Source of the DNA: a virus
Taxonomy: Duplodnaviria; Heunggongvirae; Uroviricota; Caudoviricetes
Reading direction: 5' to 3' (one strand)
IMG/VR virus record: IMGVR_UViG_2585427778_000003
DNA: 27,680 nt
Position numbers and translations under genes: made by a program. Under the pieces are notes generated by a model. That model saw nothing but the letters and a program-made list of their open reading frames with translations. It searched no databases and was not told the DNA's origin. This document shows positions 1-24,731 of the stretch, piece by piece. Within the stretch, counting starts at the first letter, position 1. Every line of letters begins with the position of its first letter.

Positions 1-94
1 AACATTTGCGCCCCTGAACAGGGGCGCTATCCCACCACGCTGTTAAAATTTTGTTTCGTCTTACTTAGCATTTTTAAGTTGCCCATCGGAAAAA

Positions 95-366
95 CGTCAC
101 AACCATCACGCCCCACAAAAAAAACCATTAACCATCTGATTATCATGAATAAATGTTGTGATGGTAAAACCATCACAAAACGTAACGTAAACCGTCACAC
201 CCTATAAATTCAGCGAGTTATAAAACAGAGTTGTGATGTTTTAAGGCCGTCACACTGTGATGCTCTTGTGATGCTCTTGTGATGGTTTTCAATATATGAA
301 TTTACTTATACATATCATATAGATAAATGATATTTTTTAAATCTGTGATGTTTGTGACGGTTTTCC
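95..366. repeat. Array of about 12 short repeats GTGATG / CRTCAC in both orientations, several extended to AAAACC(A/G)TCAC; includes 11-bp tandem CTCTTGTGATG x2
   Basis: Read directly: CRTCAC at 95-100, 104-109, 171-176, 193-198, 248-253; GTGAYG at 158-163, 233-238, 257-262, 268-273, 279-284, 345-350, 354-359. No ORF of 60 aa or more in 1..886. Confidence 0.5.
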
Positions 367-990
367 GATGCTCCCCCTAAATTTTTGAAAAAATTAGAAG
401 TGGTCAGAAATCACCCTGATTTGTTGGTGGTTTTGTATATATCTCTGTTAGTGATTTGAGCATTGGTGCAGTACGTTAATGTAGGTATGGCTATAGTTCA
501 GGCTGTGCAAAGTATTTCAGTTCCGCATCTCACGGTCATTCCGCGCCAGAACACATCAAATAAGGCCTTGTCACTTTCTCCCGCTTACGTGATCCCGCTG
601 CGGCCGTTACGTTAAAAGTCACGTAATCACTGTTAAACCCGCATGAAGTCCGGCACCGTCATTTTTCACCCACGGCCGGTAATTGCACAAAAACTGTAAT
701 CCTTGAAATCTGTTTCACATATTTCAGTCGGTGAACTACCGCCAAAGCCCCAGCGCTGGCGCAGTCTGGCGATGTGTTTTGTACCCCCAGAAAAACTGAA
801 ATCATTCTCAACACGAAAACCGCAGGCGGGTGCGGTGTAGCGCCGTTTTCGTCACTTCCGCCGTTATTTCGTCGTGGCAGGCTGCATCAGCGCCTTGCTG
901 TGCTTTTAAAGCTAATTAAGTTGGGATTGGAGCGGGTGTAGATACTGTCGGCGCTCAGAATGCGTCTGGTGAGGTCTGGTGGGTGCGATA

Positions 991-1010
991 AAGCCCGCAT
1001 GACGCGGGCT
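991..1010 (-). terminator. Weak hairpin downstream of the last tail gene (stem AGCCCGC/GCGGGCT, 5-nt loop), followed on minus strand by TTAT
   Basis: Inverted repeat 992-998 / 1004-1010 located 10 nt after the stop of the 1021..2724 CDS; U-tract is poor so terminator function is uncertain. Confidence 0.3.
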
Positions 1011-1020
1011 GGTTGAGAAA

Positions 1021-2724
1021 TCAGGCGATAATGTTCTGGTACTTGCTCCGGGTCTGCCCGGCTTTCGTCGCCGTCTGTGTAAACTCGGCGGCATTGGTTG
1101 GAGTCCCAACGGTGGGGTGTGAATGGTTCGCGCATTGCTGCGCCAGTTCTGCCAGTAAATCAATGGTGTCCAGCATCATGGTCAGGGCGTTGATACTCTC
1201 GCTGCCAATATGGACTGTTGCCCCCATGACCTGCTGACCGCCAGCGGCCACTGATTTACGCAGTGCGGCAATCTTCTCTGTCAGGCTTTCGCCAACCTCC
1301 ACGGCTACAGCACCGCCCACTTTAGTGGACTGCTGTCCTGCTATGTCCGTTTCTTCGTTTCCTTCAATACTGGCCAGCCTGTTACCTTTCACCGCCTGGC
1401 TATAATCACCGGCGCTTACCTGCTGGATGGCTCCGGCCAGCAGTGTGGTGGTTCCCAGTACCGTGGTTTTGTCCGTGGCTTTCACCGTGGTTTCACGGCT
1501 GACCAGTTCGCGCTGCTCCGTATCGGCTTTTACGGTTCGCGCCATCGATGTTTCACTGATGGTTTGATCGGTCTGCCTTACCCAGTCTCCAGCCTGAGTC
1601 ACCCTCTGGGATACTTCTTCCCTCTGCTGCTGCAATTGCTCACCGGGTTTAACGTCCGGCAGGCTGGTACCATCCGGCAGCGTCTGCCTGATAAAGGGTT
1701 TATCCGGTCTGCCTCCCGTGAATGCAACCTCAACCAGCGTCCCTTCTGGCGGAAACTGAAACATACCTGAATCATTCCCGGCCATTGGCACCGGCAGCGG
1801 CACCGCTGAGTAAACAGGCGTCTGATTGTCCGGGTTTCCGTCTGCGTCAAGCAGCTGAACGTCCACGGCATAACGTGGCCGGAATGGATCGGCAAAATTA
1901 CCACTTTTCACGGGTTCAGTATGTGCCACCACTCTGGCCATCTTTGGCAGATGAAGCCCGGAAGCCAGTTCCGGATAATGGCTCTCAATCTGTCGTTGTG
2001 TCGGTGTTTTCTGAAGGGGGCTGCCTGTGACGCGGTTCCGGGGTGTCCAGGTGATAGTCATCGTGTCATTTGTAAGATGGACTTTGGTGACCCGTTCACC
2101 GTTAAGCTCAACGCCGGGTCGTATCGTCTGGATCACCGGTAACGTTATGGTATTCCCGCCAGCAGCCCCCTGGCTGAACTCTGCCGGCACTTCGACCGGA
2201 CGACCGGTAAACAGTGACTTTTCAGCACCGCCGACGTAAAGCGAACCATCAGGCAACTGGTACCAGATGTAATCCTGGATACTGAATGCCCTGCCCAGGT
2301 TGTTCAGCAACTGATAGCCGGTACCGTTATGGGTGAAATGGGGGATCGGAGTATCGCTGTAAGACACATCGGGTACACTGACACCGATCCCGCTGTTTTC
2401 CGTCAGCCAGCCGGCTACATCCCTTAATGTCGGGTGCTGAAATGAACATGGCCACATCCTTTCAAAAACACCGGCCAGCTCACGAATGAACAGACGCTGA
2501 TAACCGTTTTCAGCTGGTTGTGAACGTTCAACATAACCGGTAAACCAGCGCAAAAGCAGGTCGGTATATCCCACATCCAGCCGCACCAGTTTCCCGGTAT
2601 AATCAGTGGTTGTCTCTGCGGTAATAAATCCCCGACCGCAACTGTTAAGCTCCAGTACCAGGCTGGCATCAGCCAGATGCACTTCATCCGTTGAAAGGTA
2701 AAGACGTTTAACTGGTTTCATCAT
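1021..2724 (-). CDS. Large tail/baseplate-associated protein, 567 aa; possibly the hub (P2 gpD-like role), function not resolved
   Basis: Last gene of the tail operon; start ATG overlaps upstream stop (TAATG at 2722-2726); no convincing motif recalled, only a weak LFTG-xx-EV resemblance to P2 gpD. Confidence 0.5.
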   Translation of the reverse strand: MMKPVKRLYLSTDEVHLADASLVLELNSCGRGFITAETTTDYTGKLVRLDVGYTDLLLRWFTGYVERSQPAENGYQRLFIRELAGVFERMWPCSFQHPTLRDVAGWLTENSGIGVSVPDVSYSDTPIPHFTHNGTGYQLLNNLGRAFSIQDYIWYQLPDGSLYVGGAEKSLFTGRPVEVPAEFSQGAAGGNTITLPVIQTIRPGVELNGERVTKVHLTNDTMTITWTPRNRVTGSPLQKTPTQRQIESHYPELASGLHLPKMARVVAHTEPVKSGNFADPFRPRYAVDVQLLDADGNPDNQTPVYSAVPLPVPMAGNDSGMFQFPPEGTLVEVAFTGGRPDKPFIRQTLPDGTSLPDVKPGEQLQQQREEVSQRVTQAGDWVRQTDQTISETSMARTVKADTEQRELVSRETTVKATDKTTVLGTTTLLAGAIQQVSAGDYSQAVKGNRLASIEGNEETDIAGQQSTKVGGAVAVEVGESLTEKIAALRKSVAAGGQQVMGATVHIGSESINALTMMLDTIDLLAELAQQCANHSHPTVGTPTNAAEFTQTATKAGQTRSKYQNIIA

Positions 2725-4543: not shown

Positions 4544-6120
4544 TATGCGAGTCTCACTATGTAGTTGAATGCAATATTCTTAACGGTCGTTTCTGTGTTA
4601 CCCGACGCTGCGACGGTAATGGTGTGACTGTGTGCGCCTATTGCTACAGTGTGAGCATGAGCGCCGATACCTACAGTGTGATTGTGCGCGCCAATTCCTA
4701 CTGTGTGAGCGTGGTTTCCGGCTGATGATGAGTTAGACGCGGATCCCCAGCGTGGCACCTGATTTTGTGTGTTATTACCTGAATCAACGTAAGTTCCCCC
4801 ATAATTCCTAGAATGTACGTGTGCCCCCGTTGTATTCGTCGTTTTAGTCCCATAATCAAAAGTGCTGGCTGTTTTGGTACCGTAATCGAATGAGGATGTC
4901 GATTTCGTCCCCAGATCGGTACTGGATGCACTGGCTGTATGGGTATGGGATTTATTGCCATCATCTTCATAGGAGAGAACTGCGCGGCCGTCTGGTTTCC
5001 CTTTGATCGTCCGCCCACGCGCATCAGGAATTACGCCCGATGGATAAGCAATAGCCAGTAAAGGATATGCCGCCTTATCAAAAGATTGTCCCTGCATAAT
5101 TGCCCACCCGGCAGGTGGAATATCCGTTGACCAGGGCAGCGGCACACCAACAGGAAGAACATCACTACGGCTTAAAACGGCCAGTTCCCCCAGATCCAGG
5201 CTTTTCCTGGCTTTTGCCTTGTCGTTAACATCTGCAAGATTTGCATCTTTACGTAAAAAATCACTGCTGGCCTGCTGTTCGCTCAGGCTACCTTTTGGCC
5301 GTAAATCCGTGATGTTGCCGTCTGCATCAATGCTGGCCACCGCAAACACGTAATGCTGAACCCCGTTCTGAACGTAATCAGCAAGATTTGCTGCCACCGT
5401 GATTTTGCTCTGCACATTCCAGACGCTGGTCAGCGTTCCCGTCCAGCACACATCCAGCCAGACTTTCACTGGCTTCGTTGCCACCGTTATATTCTGGTTA
5501 GCAGCCAGTGATGCCCGGAGTCCTGCCACATAGCCCGTGCCCTTAGTGACGAAAAACTGATTTCCTGTTTTAGCGACCAGATACCCGTTACCAAAAAACG
5601 CCGCCGCGCCATAAATATCTGTATTTTCAATTCGCTGGCGTTCATCCATTCCACCCATGCGTGCAGTGAAGTCAATCTGCCAGGTTTCTGCTGGCGTATT
5701 GATGCCGGTTTCCGTCTGTGCGCCGTTGTATTCCATCAGGAAAGAACGGGTCAGGACATTCCCCTGCTGCCCTTCTGCAGTTTTCAGCTTTTGCTGGACA
5801 GGCGCATGCACAATCATCGCCAGCGTGCCGCTGGCCTTGTTAATCAGGCCGATCCAGTTAAACGAAAAATCGCCCACATCCGCCCCCAGCACAACGGAGT
5901 GCACCACGGCATTTTCATTCACCACACCTTTACGGCTGACTGCCTGCCGGTGAACAATCTGCGCGGCCGGTGGCAGTGTCTCGCTGCGATCAACGGGTTG
6001 TTCTGGATTCAGTCCCGGCACGTTCGCAAAAACAAATTCGTCCAGCAGGACAGGCTCGCCAGTGGCACCCTGCAGCGCCTTCCACTGTTCAAATGCCAGT
6101 GTGATAGCTGTCTGTGACAT
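4543..6120 (-). CDS. Tail fiber protein, 525 aa, with C-terminal HxH repeat tip
   Basis: Position between baseplate I-like gene and Tfa; C-terminus carries DYGTKT repeats and three tandem 9-aa units H-x-H-T-V-(G/A)-I-G-A. Confidence 0.75.
4621..4713 (-). repeat. 27-bp tandem repeat (about 3.4 copies) encoding the HxHTV(G/A)IGA units of the tail fiber tip
   Basis: CTACAGTGTGA recurs at 4644-4654 and 4671-4681 (27-bp period); translated repeats HAHTVGIGA / HNHTVGIGA / HAHTVAIGA / HSHT. Confidence 0.55.
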
Positions 6121-6129
6121 AAAATCTCC

Positions 6130-6717
6130 CTATAAACCCGCGCTGAACGTCGCGCTGTCTGTTTCCGTACTGTTTAACGCTGCCGGATACGCCACATATT
6201 CTCCCTGATCCCATCCCGCCCGGATGGCCAGGCTTTCAGACGTGATCACCTCAAACTGATAACGGCGGCATGTTCGCCCGTACTGGCGAATTATCTGGAT
6301 CAGCAACTGCGTGTTGTCCGCAATCTGGCTGTCTGTCACGCGAACCAGTATCACGTCCCAGTCAATCCCCGGCTGGCGTTCCTGCAGCTCAACGTACCCA
6401 ATTCCCAGCCGTTCAAAGATGTTGATAAACCCCTCAACGGAACCGGCATCCCGCGCATTGACAAAGGCATATGCCACGCGCTTACGGAACAATGCCAGCG
6501 GTTCACCGTCAAAGCGGGTAATATCGCGGTCATACGCCAGCAGGTTCAGTAATGCCGGCGTACACGTCAGCGGATCGAACTGATTCACTGGCCACGTACC
6601 CCAGCCGTAAACCTCAGTCCAGAACCGCCGCGCCGTTTTCAGCAGCTTCGCCGGCTCGCCTTTGTTCATCCAGGAAGGAAGCACCATCCCGGCCAGCTTT
6701 TTCAGGAACTCACTCAT
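6130..6717 (-). CDS. Baseplate protein, P2 gpI-like, about 195 aa
   Basis: Follows the J-like gene with 8-nt overlap (ATGAGTGA); size close to P2 gpI; ORF-track start at 6735 is a TTG, so ATG 6715-6717 is preferred. Confidence 0.6.
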   Translation of the reverse strand: MSEFLKKLAGMVLPSWMNKGEPAKLLKTARRFWTEVYGWGTWPVNQFDPLTCTPALLNLLAYDRDITRFDGEPLALFRKRVAYAFVNARDAGSVEGFINIFERLGIGYVELQERQPGIDWDVILVRVTDSQIADNTQLLIQIIRQYGRTCRRYQFEVITSESLAIRAGWDQGEYVAYPAALNSTETDSATFSAGL

Positions 6718-7894
6718 TTTCAACAACAACCGCAAGCGATTTCAGGCGTGGAACACTCAGTTCGCTGGTGATATCACCCAGTGAAAAAGACAGTGATTCC
6801 GTCTGAGCAAATGTCCTGTGGATCTCCCGCCCCAGCTGAGAAAAGGAAAAACGCGAATATGGCCACGTCTTCCTGACGTCATAATCAGCATTCTCACGAA
6901 AAGCACAGCGGATCATGTTCTCCACCCCGTCCTTCAGGGTTTTCCTGTCCTCATCGCTGAAATTGGCCAGATTTTTGACATAAACTGTGACGGACAGATC
7001 ATGAAGCGTTTCCGGCATGGGATAGCACTGCATATCATCACCGTGGCCGTGATGCCCCTGCGTGTTGATATAGTCATTGACGGCATCCACGAACGGCGAA
7101 GAAGCCACCCCGCTGTCCAGCAACAGATACGCGTTGGCGGTACCGGGTCCCCTCGGCGCTTCATGTTCAAAGAAAATCCGGTCAATACTCAGCCCTGCAA
7201 CGCCGGCAATCATCGACCGGTAAACGGCGTCAGTGTGGTAATTCCCCACCAGATTGAACTGATTGCGGCAGCGTTCGCGCAGCTCGTCATCACTTTCTTC
7301 ATCCGCGCCCGGTACGGTCAGCCAGTTTTCTTCGCTGGCCACGTGGCTGATACCGTCAACGGCAACCGGCAGAATGCGGTAATATCCCGGCGCAAGGTTA
7401 TATGCGCCCCCGGTGCCGGTGGCTTTTACCGGCAGTAATGCGCAGGCCGTACCGGAAGCGATCACTACATCCTCACTGGTGGCCAGCTCATACACGCGAC
7501 CGTTAATGCGCTCTGTCTGGATAACCGTCCCGGCTTTCACCGTCACCACCGCTCTTGCATCTTCTTTGAAGAAGCGGATCACACCCTGTGCCGCGCTCGC
7601 CGGTTTTGCCGTGACGTTCACCGCCCACGCCAGCAGACGCAACATGCTCCCGCTGGCCGTGGCCACAAACATGTTGGCCAGCACAGTGAACACCAGAACG
7701 TCTTTCAGCCACATTACTGGTGCGGTCACAATGGCGGTGATTAACCGCCAGAACGGTGACATGCGGGACGTATTGGTGATGATGCCCTCCTCATCCGCGA
7801 TCGCATTGAAGCGATCGTGAACCTCAGATTCCGTCACCGGCATCCCGCTGGCTTTCACCACTTCTTCAAAATCAACCTGGGGCTTTTCCGTCAT
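6710..7894 (-). CDS. Baseplate assembly protein, gpJ-like, about 394 aa
   Basis: ATGA start/stop overlap with upstream W-like gene at 7891-7894; order W-J-I-H-G matches P2. Confidence 0.65.
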   Translation of the reverse strand: MTEKPQVDFEEVVKASGMPVTESEVHDRFNAIADEEGIITNTSRMSPFWRLITAIVTAPVMWLKDVLVFTVLANMFVATASGSMLRLLAWAVNVTAKPASAAQGVIRFFKEDARAVVTVKAGTVIQTERINGRVYELATSEDVVIASGTACALLPVKATGTGGAYNLAPGYYRILPVAVDGISHVASEENWLTVPGADEESDDELRERCRNQFNLVGNYHTDAVYRSMIAGVAGLSIDRIFFEHEAPRGPGTANAYLLLDSGVASSPFVDAVNDYINTQGHHGHGDDMQCYPMPETLHDLSVTVYVKNLANFSDEDRKTLKDGVENMIRCAFRENADYDVRKTWPYSRFSFSQLGREIHRTFAQTESLSFSLGDITSELSVPRLKSLAVVVENE

Positions 7895-21285: not shown

Positions 21286-22005
21286 ATGTTAATAGTCTCA
21301 GTTCTTAAATGTAGTAAAGAGTTTACCCCTAAACACGCCCAATGGCTTCATCGTCAGTTCAAAGATATTCCATCTATATGTTTAACCGATGCAGATAATA
21401 TTCCTGGAGTTAACACAACCCCTTTGCTTTATAACTGGCCGGGATGGTGGTCTAAAATTGAACTATTTAATCCTAATCACCCAGTCCTTGGAGACCAAGA
21501 TTTACTCTATTTTGACGTAGATGTTGTGGTCACGGGAGATATTCATATTTTCGAAGGTGCGAAGAAATTTACAATGCTTCGGGAGTTTAACCATGCCTCA
21601 AGAGTAAACTCATCAATAATGATGATTCCGGCGTCGATTAAAAAGACGATTTGGGAACAATTCATTATTGATCCTGAGAAAATTATGCGCAATTGTCAGA
21701 CTGAAGACAAATGGGGTGATCAGGGATTTCTCGGTAGCATCATAAAACCAGCCCTATGGCAGGATATCATTCCTGGCTCAATTGTTAGTTATAAATGTGA
21801 CATCGCCACCCCCTCGATGATTGGCTTCAATGCAAATTTAGCCTCTGAGGCTGCGACAGGGAAAGTCCCTGATAATGTGGCGGTTGTTTGCTTTCATGGC
21901 AGTCCACGCCCCTGGCGTACTGGTTTTGATTGGGTTCCTTCGTTTTCCCTGCGGGATACTCTGTACGGTAAATTAAAGAACTTTAAAATAAGAATGAAGC
22001 AATAA
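21286..22005 (+). CDS. Soluble GT8-like (glycogenin/LgtC/WaaJ-type) nucleotide-sugar glycosyltransferase, 239 aa; AT-rich moron
   Basis: Strong SD GGGAGG 21274-21279; DxD-type FDVDVVV, GDQGFL and C-terminal FHGSPRPW (HxxGxxKPW-like); no TM or signal peptide; codon usage visibly AT-richer than flanking genes. Confidence 0.6.
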   Translation: MLIVSVLKCSKEFTPKHAQWLHRQFKDIPSICLTDADNIPGVNTTPLLYNWPGWWSKIELFNPNHPVLGDQDLLYFDVDVVVTGDIHIFEGAKKFTMLREFNHASRVNSSIMMIPASIKKTIWEQFIIDPEKIMRNCQTEDKWGDQGFLGSIIKPALWQDIIPGSIVSYKCDIATPSMIGFNANLASEAATGKVPDNVAVVCFHGSPRPWRTGFDWVPSFSLRDTLYGKLKNFKIRMKQ

Positions 22006-22073: not shown

Positions 22074-24731
22074 TTACTTTTCCCGGCCAAATATCCAGCA
22101 GCGGAATGTTTCCGGCATCCGTTGCATATCCCCTTTACCACGATTATGGCGCTCACTTACCGCGCTGCGCGTGGTGCTTTGTCTGATAAACCGGCGCTCA
22201 TTGCCGTTTTTAAGCAGCTTTTTAATTTCCGTTAACGTGAACGGAATACGCTGCCGGTGTGCTGCGGCGACCTCTTCCATGTGATTGAAATTAACCGCGA
22301 TTTCATTTTCATCTGATGAATGATTGATGCCATAAGGTGCCAGTTCATCCAAGTAATCAAACAGCTCCCAGAACTCCTGCACCAGAGGATGATCCTTTTT
22401 AAGTGCCTGACAACGTTCAACGGCCAGCGCGGTGATGGCTTCACGCGTTTTTTCTATACGTTCAACCGGCACCGGTACAACAAGTGCAAGCGCCTCCAGC
22501 AAGCCCACAAGCTGCGCGTGATTCTTTGCAATACGGATATGGCGAATACTGCTATTAGACTCCAGCTCATTCCTAGCTCGCTCGTACCCCCTGCCGAACG
22601 TCTGCATGATTTCTTTTTCGCGCATGGTGGCCAGTAATGTGAATCCGGATACCTGGCTAACGGGGAGTTGTTCAAGTCGTTCTGCAGCGTGGCGCGTCTG
22701 AATGGACTGGCCGCGCTTGTCGGTATAGATGTGGATGATACGCTCCAGAAACGCCTTGCTGCCGTCTGTGTCGGCATTTTGCGCTATCACAATACTTCCC
22801 CTGAACGGCGGCTCATACGTCTCGTTATTGTTCGATTTGATACCCACGGCGCGGGAGGCACGACCGTTATACAGTGATTTCAGCTCGTCCCAGTCAAAAG
22901 CGCGTTGCTTGGCGTTATCGGTAGTACGGTCGCCCTCAATCAGCACAACCGGCAGATTACCGACCTGGGCGAAGTTACGGCCACGCGCGGCGGCGGTAGA
23001 TTTAGATGGGTCAAACCCTTCGTATTCCTCACGGCCGGCGAGCTTCCAGAGAAATTCTATCAGCGTGGATTTACCTGTCCCCGGCTCGCCCACGATTTCC
23101 AGAAACGGAAATGACTTGTCACGCTCGCGGATTTGTTCGGCAAACAGCGACCCCAGCCAGAACGCCAGCGCCACATACCCTTTTTCACCAAATGCCGTCC
23201 AGATATCGTCTACCCAACCCGTAGTAAACTCGTTCAGCTTCGGATTCAGATCCAGCGCCGGCGTGAGGCTCAGGCTCTTAACGCTGGCACTGTTGATTTC
23301 GAAGTAATCCTCGTCGTTCATCTCATACAGCCGGCCATCGCAAACGGCCACGCGGTTAAACAACCAGGCGGCATAATCCTTGTTATAGCCGATGAAATTC
23401 TGCGTCTTTACCTCTTTGATTTCAGGGAGGCGCATCTGGATGAACTTATCCAGCTGTTTGGTGCTGCCTGTGTACACCGCCCCTTTGGCGATGTGCAGCA
23501 GACGCTTTTTGAACTCGGCGGAGCTGGTGAGCTGATTAGCCGTGAAAGTATCTTTCACGGCTGGCCGGTTAGGCATACTGACTTTCACGTAATACCAGGA
23601 CTCGTCCGTAGGTTCAGACCGCTGAAAGTAAAGCGGCGTCAGCCAGCAGTTAGCTATTTCGGTCACGCCGCCTGACTCTTTAACCGCCCGTTCTTTGGCC
23701 TCCCACTCCATCACCACTTCGGTACCGGTATTGGTGATGCGCTCATAGGCTCGCATATACCTGTCCAGATCCAGCTCAAACCAGTACATGCGGGAGTTAT
23801 GCTCAAAGTAGAACGAGTGCCACTCGTTATGCTGATGCATGAGCAGCGCTTTCTCAGTCGGGCTTTTTGCCAGAAGGAGATCGCCATAGTAGCGATAATT
23901 TTTAATGTCCGACTTACTGAACCGGTTACGTAACAACAGGTCATTCCAGTCCAGCGATGCCGATGATTTCACCGGCTGCGCGGCACGAGTTTTCCATCCT
24001 GCAGCATCACTACGGGCAGCGAACGCCAGTGTGTGCTTTGTGCCGGCTTTATCGCCGTCAAACGCCCATACAAGACGTGGACGTGGTTTTTCACCCAGTT
24101 CTTTGGCCAGCGTATCCAGTGCGGCCAGCGGATAGTTGTTACTGCTCAGTGTGGCAACTGCAGGTAACCCTGCCTGGCACAGACTCAGCGCGTTGAAGAT
24201 TCCCTCAGTGATCCAGATTTCGTTCACTTCCTGCAGGTTGATAAAGGGAGGAACCCACCAGTGACCGACATAGCTTCCCCTGATGTTGGCTTTCTGCTTA
24301 CCGAAGCGCTGCGGCTGGTCAATGATGCGCTCCCATGTTGCACCGCATGACAGCGAAAATCTGACCGTTGCCGACCCCATGCCATCTTTCACGAATGCAC
24401 CCTGGGTAAAACAGCCTTTTAATGGCTCAGTCTCCAGCCCTCTGGCCTCGCGCAGATACGCCTCAGCTACTGCATGGGGGTTATCTTCTGTGGTCTGGTA
24501 ACGTTTTGACCAGTCTTCAAAGATATCCGGATACAGCTCTTTCACGACAATCTGATGTGCGCAGTTATTTTCACGGCCACATTTCAGAATCCAGGGCTTT
24601 TCTATGCTGGTAAATAATTCGCGCTTACGACAGGCAGGGCAAACGCCCTGCTGCAAATACTTATCCCGCTCTTTAAATTCAAAGTCCCGAACAAGACGGC
24701 GCACAACGTCCTGTTGTATCGTTTCGTTCAT
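22074..24731 (-). CDS. Replication primase-helicase, P4 alpha / HP1 Rep-like, 885 aa
   Basis: N-terminal zinc ribbon (CPACRK...CGRENNCAH), central primase region, Walker A GEPGTGKST and Walker B-like VLIEGD in C-terminal helicase part. Confidence 0.8.
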   Translation of the reverse strand: MNETIQQDVVRRLVRDFEFKERDKYLQQGVCPACRKRELFTSIEKPWILKCGRENNCAHQIVVKELYPDIFEDWSKRYQTTEDNPHAVAEAYLREARGLETEPLKGCFTQGAFVKDGMGSATVRFSLSCGATWERIIDQPQRFGKQKANIRGSYVGHWWVPPFINLQEVNEIWITEGIFNALSLCQAGLPAVATLSSNNYPLAALDTLAKELGEKPRPRLVWAFDGDKAGTKHTLAFAARSDAAGWKTRAAQPVKSSASLDWNDLLLRNRFSKSDIKNYRYYGDLLLAKSPTEKALLMHQHNEWHSFYFEHNSRMYWFELDLDRYMRAYERITNTGTEVVMEWEAKERAVKESGGVTEIANCWLTPLYFQRSEPTDESWYYVKVSMPNRPAVKDTFTANQLTSSAEFKKRLLHIAKGAVYTGSTKQLDKFIQMRLPEIKEVKTQNFIGYNKDYAAWLFNRVAVCDGRLYEMNDEDYFEINSASVKSLSLTPALDLNPKLNEFTTGWVDDIWTAFGEKGYVALAFWLGSLFAEQIRERDKSFPFLEIVGEPGTGKSTLIEFLWKLAGREEYEGFDPSKSTAAARGRNFAQVGNLPVVLIEGDRTTDNAKQRAFDWDELKSLYNGRASRAVGIKSNNNETYEPPFRGSIVIAQNADTDGSKAFLERIIHIYTDKRGQSIQTRHAAERLEQLPVSQVSGFTLLATMREKEIMQTFGRGYERARNELESNSSIRHIRIAKNHAQLVGLLEALALVVPVPVERIEKTREAITALAVERCQALKKDHPLVQEFWELFDYLDELAPYGINHSSDENEIAVNFNHMEEVAAAHRQRIPFTLTEIKKLLKNGNERRFIRQSTTRSAVSERHNRGKGDMQRMPETFRCWIFGREK

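Follow-up and report, generated by a model that had tools for sequence, protein, structure and literature searches.

Predicted replication origin in an array of hexanucleotide boxes beside cos in a P2-family prophage that encodes a primase-helicase

The stretch of DNA analysed here (27,680 bp; hereafter the window) belongs to a P2-family (Peduoviridae), Evevirus-like prophage, and is identical to positions 1162457-1190136 of E. coli STK78-E (NZ_CP162185.1). The prophage is inserted between raiA and pheL, with the raiA terminator as the crossover core, and its order is attL, acyltransferase, array, cos, baseplate/tail, head, ogr, primase-helicase, exonuclease, cox, repressor, integrase and attR. 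The phage acyltransferase gene, of 1.1 kb, lies just left of the window, and the stem-loop directly 3' of its stop marks this gene as the left neighbour of the array (Table 1). Among phage records the closest is that of Escherichia phage ESSI2_ev239 (genus Evevirus), in which the same segment is 82.6% identical over 1-833. The cohesive-end sequence, cos, was placed with the help of the Cronobacter phage ESSI-2 record (L011), which opens and closes with the same 15 nt (1-15 and 28751-28765), and the ESSI2_ev239 record stops at window-equivalent position 833, inside cos. In its RefSeq version the ESSI2_ev239 record (L001 3834-3910) ends in CTGTCTCTTATACACATCT...ATCTCGTATGCCGTCTTCTGCTTG plus poly-A, which we take to be an unremoved Nextera adapter. 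Repeats of the form ACTGAAAT / TGAAAA at 690-810 adjoin cos and occur in relatives of both the gpA type and the primase type; they are candidate cosB-like sites for the terminase.

A prediction made from the letters of the window had described its left end as free of open reading frames and as carrying a dense array of about 12 copies of GTGAYG or its complement CRTCAC. Both descriptions hold, as the longest ORF starting in 1-886 is 55 aa, with none of 60 aa or more, and 12 boxes are present at 95-359 in both orientations. Across the window GTGAYG occurs 65 times on the two strands; whole-window shuffles averaged 30.8 copies and never exceeded 50. Twelve of these 65 copies fall in 95-359, where approximately 0.5 would be expected per 265 bp given that the remaining 53 are scattered across ~27.4 kb. 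The consensus over the 12 boxes is TTGTGAYGGTTTT. With a weight matrix built from them, all 12 score at least 14.3, the top site elsewhere scores 14.0 and is isolated, and no second box cluster was found in the window. The longer motifs of the original prediction were likewise recovered, namely the extended forms AAAACCATCAC (166-176) and AAACCGTCAC (189-198), the inverse forms GTGATGGTTTTC / GTGACGGTTTTC (279-290 and 354-365), and an 11-bp tandem, CTCTTGTGATG, present twice at 263-284.

Table 1. Positions of the features in the window and of the corresponding arrays in other phages.
Feature	Position	Strand	Basis
Stem-loop directly 3' of the acyltransferase stop; marks the left neighbour of the array	8-27	+	
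Predicted replication origin, entire iteron array	73-381	.	Box count, weight matrix, inverted repeat, alignment
Minus-strand boxes	Starts 95, 104, 171, 193, 248	-	Motif count
Plus-strand boxes	Starts 158, 233, 257, 268, 279, 345, 354	+	Motif count
Left outer box pair CGTCAC-aac-CATCAC, 9 bp start to start	95-109	-	Motif count, cross-array comparison
IHF consensus match WATCARNNNNTTR, in a spacer of 28-37% G+C	129-141	-	Consensus match alone
Palindromic box pair TTGTGATGGT-aaa-ACCATCACAA	156-178	.	
Two single boxes, 193-198 (-) and 233-238 (+)	193-238	.	Both kept in 11/11 aligned arrays
Box 248-253 (-) back to back with three direct plus boxes (257, 268, 279), 11 bp apart	248-284	.	
AT-rich core, candidate DNA-unwinding element, 7 G/C in 53 bases (13% G+C)	291-343	.	
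Right outer box pair GTGATG-ttt-GTGACG, 9 bp start to start, inverted relative to 95-109	345-359	+	
Flank conserved alongside the array in primase-type relatives, missing from gpA-type relatives	366-470	.	
cos (cohesive-end) sequence GCGGGTGCGGTGTAG, context and outside the predicted origin	826-840	.	ESSI-2 record ends
885-aa Toprim primase fused to a helicase, phiCTX orf37 type, predicted initiator	22074-24731	-	
C-terminal domain of the primase-helicase, residues 690-885	22077-22664	-	
phiCTX array, GGTAAT, 12 copies	35107-35400		
RSY1 array, GGTAAY, about 10 copies	16-300		
Smp131 array, GGTAAC, about 10 copies	33054-33330		
Halomonas phage 4908 array, GGTAAY, about 8 copies	192-465		
UFJF_PfPro array, CTGACA, 10 copies	814-1086		
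phi3 array, TGTTCC, 15-16 copies	7404-7718		

The array is bounded by an imperfect 37-nt inverted repeat (73-109 and 345-381; 81% complementary), with one pair of boxes, spaced 9 bp, in each arm. At around position 255 the orientation of the boxes switches and so does the GC skew, with 5 of the 7 boxes to the left pointing one way and all 5 to the right pointing the other. In addition to the AT-rich core, a further AT-rich spacer lies at 110-156. The IHF consensus WATCARNNNNTTR has four matches in the entire window, including the one inside the array. Within the array no DnaA boxes were found above chance, an Rfam scan of 1-1100 at E <= 1 returned no match, and scans for promoters and terminators gave weak consensus matches and nothing stronger.

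The array is phage DNA. One suggestion in the original prediction was that it might be a host regulatory region, should the prophage boundary lie to its right, but comparison with the insertion site places this boundary at the raiA terminator, so that the array lies within the prophage, ~1.4 kb from the core. Furthermore, the packaged genome of ESSI2_ev239 includes the segment, and of 5,426 complete E. coli genomes just 25 contain it; in the three of these that were inspected it sits inside the prophage. It is therefore not conserved host intergenic DNA retained by prophage-free strains. That the segment might be host intergenic regulatory DNA, or a functionless chance clustering, has the absence of ORFs in its favour and nothing else, whereas the extreme enrichment of the boxes, and their greater conservation relative to the spacers (see below), argue against it together with the distribution just described. 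We reject this explanation, the probability of which is practically nil.

To see which parts of the array are maintained, 11 distinct GTGAYG arrays were aligned. Variable columns made up 9 of 84 in boxes versus 95 of 202 in spacers (odds ratio 0.14, Fisher p = 1e-9), and the changes within boxes were mostly T/C at the degenerate Y position. Homology among the 11 arrays begins at ~76-85, and further left the DNA is unrelated between loci, which carry different accessory genes there. We had considered the array as a regulator site for the neighbouring acyltransferase gene, and this was rejected because the array is retained although the accessory genes left of ~76 differ. On the right, the flank at 366-470 is conserved in the same alignment; it is kept in both GTGAYG-type and TGTAACC-type phages, and there is no ORF of note inside it. 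Inside the AT-rich core, ATATCATATAGATA (312-325) is identical in 10 of the 11 aligned GTGAYG (type-A) arrays, and a resembling motif in a similar AT-rich core is present in a TGTAACC array (L096). As this motif is unchanged in 10 of 11 arrays and has a counterpart in L096, its conservation suggests a specific site, e.g., one where a primer starts or a host factor acts, and not AT-richness alone.

Arrays of the same build are found in other phages. An unbiased whole-genome scan for the hexamer most clustered within 300 bp was applied to six other complete genomes encoding the same type of primase, and in all six the top cluster was an array of ~300 bp, lying where no gene is annotated (Table 1). 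The phiCTX GenBank record labels its array merely 'R3 repeats', with two IHF sites inside. The arrays share an architecture in which boxes occur in two orientations, at least one end pair is spaced 9 bp apart and G+C is 32-48%. The leftmost pair has this spacing in phiCTX, RSY1, Smp131, the Halomonas phage and phi3 as it does in the window, and both end pairs have it in four arrays (window, phiCTX, RSY1 and phi3). The outermost boxes span 260-277 bp in 7 of 8 arrays and are oppositely oriented at the two ends in all seven related arrays. In 7 of 8 lineages the array is found in the interval from attP/int to cos and is kilobases away from the primase gene; the exception is phi3, where it starts 76 bp past the primase stop, with int and the ends of the record far off. 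A GTNAC-like core fits the boxes of every lineage (window, L008, L009, L010, L277, L278, L279 and L096), as GTGAC/GTGAT, GTAAC, GTTAC/ATTAC, CTGAC or GTTCC.

Presence of the array follows a single phage gene, in phages from at least five host genera. When the 33 proteins of the window were profiled, only the primase-helicase had homologues in all six array-bearing genomes and in neither of two array-less ones. The two array-less phages, ESSI-2 and YenM_324, have the same virion genes, cos and gene order but encode a P2 gpA-type nickase at the genome position of the primase-helicase, and neither contains a comparable hexamer cluster. The same division was seen among IMG/VR contigs, counting those in which both the replication gene and the region past cos are readable. 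The GTGAYG array was present in 4 of 4 contigs with the window-type primase, and an array in 0 of 16 gpA-type contigs; the comparison of 5/5 primase-type with 0/16 gpA-type gives an exact p of ~5e-5, to be read with the caveat that the prophages counted are related to one another and do not represent independent events. Few IMG/VR prophage contigs allow array and primase to be paired, since most of them break off at the integrase or shortly beyond the baseplate gene. Array and primase loci were paired by contig name, as shared 50-mers are unsuited to this purpose where phages have long identical stretches in common. Contig 2713896824_000001, which has a type-B primase, appeared to be an array-less case and was dropped because it ends where the array should start. 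A GGAGTCC cluster in two loci (L107 and L064) was rejected as a comparable array, being a head-to-tail tandem beside another gene. In some gpA-type relatives (L107 6300-6370; L064/L153, L190), a head-to-tail tandem of GGAGTCCC(A/G) lies ~400 bp past cos and adjoins an opposite-strand ORF.

The placement of the array between attP/int and cos in 7 of 8 lineages, and at 467 bp from cos in the window, raises the question of whether its boxes are integrase arm-type sites of attP, as the original prediction had offered among its examples, or terminase accessory sites at cos. As regards the integrase, the crossover core is ~1.4 kb from the box at 95, with the 1.1-kb acyltransferase gene intervening. 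A search for the same motif at the other prophage end, which had been proposed as a check, found no GTGAYG box at either attL or attR, and the repeats beside the core are of a GTCCACA type. The array-less ESSI-2 and YenM_324 also carry a related integrase (38-39% identity). As regards the terminase, gpA-type relatives share cos and its flanking ACTGAAA repeats yet have no array, and ESSI-2 and YenM_324 encode homologous terminase subunits at 50-73% identity (54% and 73% in ESSI-2). Homology of the gpA-type relatives to the window begins only at ~690-745, and in phi3 the array adjoins the primase gene instead. Both the arm-site and the cos accessory explanations are very improbable on these grounds and we reject them. 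The GTCCACA-type repeats flank the core at both junctions and also occur in ESSI-2 (L002 6740-6835; L007 3855-3880; L004 3195-3225 and 3400-3425), and they are candidate integrase arm-type sites.

The box sequence also varies together with the primase. Contig 3300010279_000222 has a backbone near-identical to that of the window, with an array at the same position, the same kind of AT-rich core and the same right flank, but its 12 boxes read TGTAACC. Its primase is of the same family, and the C-terminal 136 aa are 45% identical to those of the window protein. A full-length homologue of this primase (L214; C-terminal fragment 97% identical) could be compared with the window primase along its length, and identity over residues 1-100, 101-300, 301-500, 501-700, 701-760 and 761-885 was 80, 60, 58, 76, 38 and 43%, respectively, so that divergence is greatest in the last ~185 aa. 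As TGTAACC boxes occur with a diverged primase C-terminus on a near-identical backbone, box sequence and C-terminal domain have changed together on one phage backbone, as would be expected of a cognate initiator-origin pair. The TGTAACC array had no match in complete E. coli genomes or in phage records.

These observations also bear on the proposal that the array is a regulatory or architectural site of a protein other than the primase-helicase, such as the phage repressor, Cox, Ogr, a host factor or a partition protein. Short repeat arrays in two orientations are also found at operators, at Cox/Apl sites and at centromeres, and the IHF consensus match inside the array would fit such a role. 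Against this, the array occupies a stretch with no ORF of at least 60 aa, where the acyltransferase gene ends on one side and the tail operon on the other, and it stays constant while the DNA on its left varies between loci. Homologues of Cox, of the C repressor and of the other early proteins are missing from the remaining array-bearing phages, with the exception of a C homologue in phi3, whereas the array-less ESSI-2 and YenM_324 have annotated Cox- and Ogr-type regulators. No partition genes were present among the window proteins scanned, and the boxes, as described above, vary together with the primase. A role for another protein is thus unlikely.

The predicted initiator is an 885-aa protein that belongs to PHROG 1139, annotated as DNA primase. 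Toprim_3/Toprim_2 domains were detected in it, together with a weak, sub-threshold match to DUF5906. Phage records contain relatives that share 29-47% identity with it, namely the orf37-type proteins of phiCTX (41%), RSY1, Smp131 and others. Gene and array are separated by ~4.5 kb on the circular map and by ~22 kb in the prophage. For residues 690-885, a model based on an alignment of 15 sequences reached a mean pLDDT of 92; it shows a helical part and, after it, a strand-helix-helix-strand-helix-strand unit. This model resembles models of the self-loading helicases SaPI Rep and SCCmec Cch, with weak fold matches; Foldseek against the PDB gave no match below E = 0.001, and in a search of the primase profile against PDB sequences the sole matches were Toprim primases. 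Within the GGTAAY group the C-terminal domain is not unusually conserved, which counts against the origin reading. In the annotated Smp131 primase (L010 25406-27958) the last ~150 residues are unlike those of all relatives, a pattern resembling a frameshift in the record.

Several known replication systems offer points of comparison. The alpha protein of phage P4, a primase-helicase fusion, binds the octamer TGTTCACC of ori and crr via its C-terminal part, and P4 needs crr, a second iteron-bearing element kilobases from ori. The array resembles this arrangement in its short repeats in two orientations, in the fusion of primase and helicase, in a cis site kilobases from the gene, and in belonging to the world of P2 and P4, but differs in that P4 uses TGTTCACC and two cis elements while a single cluster is present here. 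The R3 region of phiCTX is a homologous element, with the same attP-cos position and architecture and a primase-helicase that is 41% identical; the difference lies in its box, GGTAAT rather than GTGAYG, and its record assigns no function. P2 belongs to the same phage family and has the same virion module, but its rolling-circle replication is initiated by a nickase at a site inside the nickase's own gene A, and the gpA relatives have no array.

There are also parallels in layout with the pathogenicity islands of Staphylococcus aureus (SaPIs), whose Reps use a C-terminal winged helix to read iterons of five or six nucleotides (PMC9371898). A SaPI origin has 6-12 iterons and an AT-rich region near its centre, with at least two oppositely pointing iterons per side, and is positioned immediately downstream of the initiator gene (PMC9371898). 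Here the iterons are also hexanucleotides, 12 in number, and the end iterons are opposed (95/104 on the minus strand, 345/354 on the plus strand). An AT-rich region is likewise found within the array; it has boxes on both sides but lies off-centre, with 10 boxes to its left and 2 to its right. The initiator, as in the PriRep of SaPI5, is a fused primase-helicase, its C-terminal domain model is similar to those of SaPI Rep and Cch, and specificity appears to reside in that domain. However, the array is not directly downstream of the initiator gene, phi3 excepted; the initiator carries a Toprim primase and shares no detectable sequence similarity with SaPI Reps; and the host is Gram-negative and the element a complete P2-family phage rather than a satellite. 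As the array neither adjoins its initiator gene in the SaPI manner nor is accompanied by a second cis element as in P4, it is not assigned to either named system, and would instead be an origin of the same kind.

Taken together, we consider it probable (roughly 75%) that 73-381 is the replication origin of the phage, and that the 12 boxes are iterons recognised by the C-terminal domain of its own 885-aa primase-helicase. The suggestion in the original prediction that the array binds protein is thereby supported by comparative evidence, and of its three example readings the origin bound by a primase-helicase, similar to ori and crr of P4, is the one favoured, while those of integrase arm sites and a host regulatory region fell away. 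Molecules of the primase-helicase would bind the oppositely oriented outer pairs and the inner boxes, and would build helicase rings on either side of the AT-rich core. These rings would melt the core at 291-343, with the helicase loading itself without a separate loader, after which the Toprim domain would prime DNA synthesis. This route is the mechanism described for SaPI Rep/PriRep and P4 alpha. Some features count against the origin reading. The array is kilobases away from the initiator gene, unlike SaPI origins, the core is off-centre, and the boxes next to it on either side (three to the left, two to the right) all point the same way, a looser symmetry than that of SaPI origins. The weakness of the fold matches is a further point against it.

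The main rival to an origin is an auxiliary cis element bound by the same primase-helicase, comparable to crr of P4 or acting as an iteron bank for copy control or handcuffing, with replication starting elsewhere. The P4 precedent, in which crr is far from ori, would allow for this, as would the distance between array and primase gene in 7 of 8 lineages and the conserved flank at 366-470, which has no assigned role. Yet the array is the sole cluster in the window, each related genome likewise has a single top-ranked cluster, and a core of 13% G+C combined with inverted outer pairs is typical of an initiation site. We therefore regard an auxiliary element as improbable and retain the origin as the preferred reading.

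A more speculative extension, which we hold to be rather doubtful, is that the array forms a nucleoprotein machine of fixed geometry, with ~270 bp between two inverted box pairs of 9-bp spacing that has been kept in phages from E. coli to Pseudomonas, Ralstonia, Stenotrophomonas and Halomonas. Specificity would in this case be set largely via the middle base of the GTNAC core, and the near-constant attP-cos placement might couple replication initiation to excision or packaging.

The usual account of P2-family phages is one of rolling-circle replication that begins at a nick in gene A. In a large branch of the family, comprising phiCTX-like phages and E. coli Evevirus prophages, a primase-helicase has taken the place of gpA. 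No origin for phiCTX-type phages is annotated or stated in the records and literature searched, a search that extended to sources other than the original phiCTX papers (Hayashi 1993, Nakayama 1999). While origins of this kind are already known, the assignment of one in this group of P2-like phages would be new. If the array is an origin, it provides a directly testable system of a ~300-bp cis element and a single trans factor, accounts for the unlabelled 'R3 repeats' of phiCTX, and offers natural specificity variants (GTGAYG, TGTAACC, GGTAAY, CTGACA and TGTTCC) for the reading of origins by self-loading helicases. The array also flags phage DNA that is often trimmed by automated prophage calls, as at several IMG/VR contig ends.

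Some further observations were made on the prophage and its relatives. The interval from ogr to the primase gene holds a 239-aa ORF at 21286-22005 (+), whose PHROG match carries the annotation glycosyltransferase (moron category); it gave no Pfam match, and none of the eight compared phages encodes a homologue. In deletion derivatives of the prophage (L003, E. coli YPE10 6001-6487; H27, PSJ-12), position 487 is fused directly to the baseplate J gene, with the array kept. In strain HZ13 (L002 16214-17000), the tail region carries an insertion of ISKpn26.
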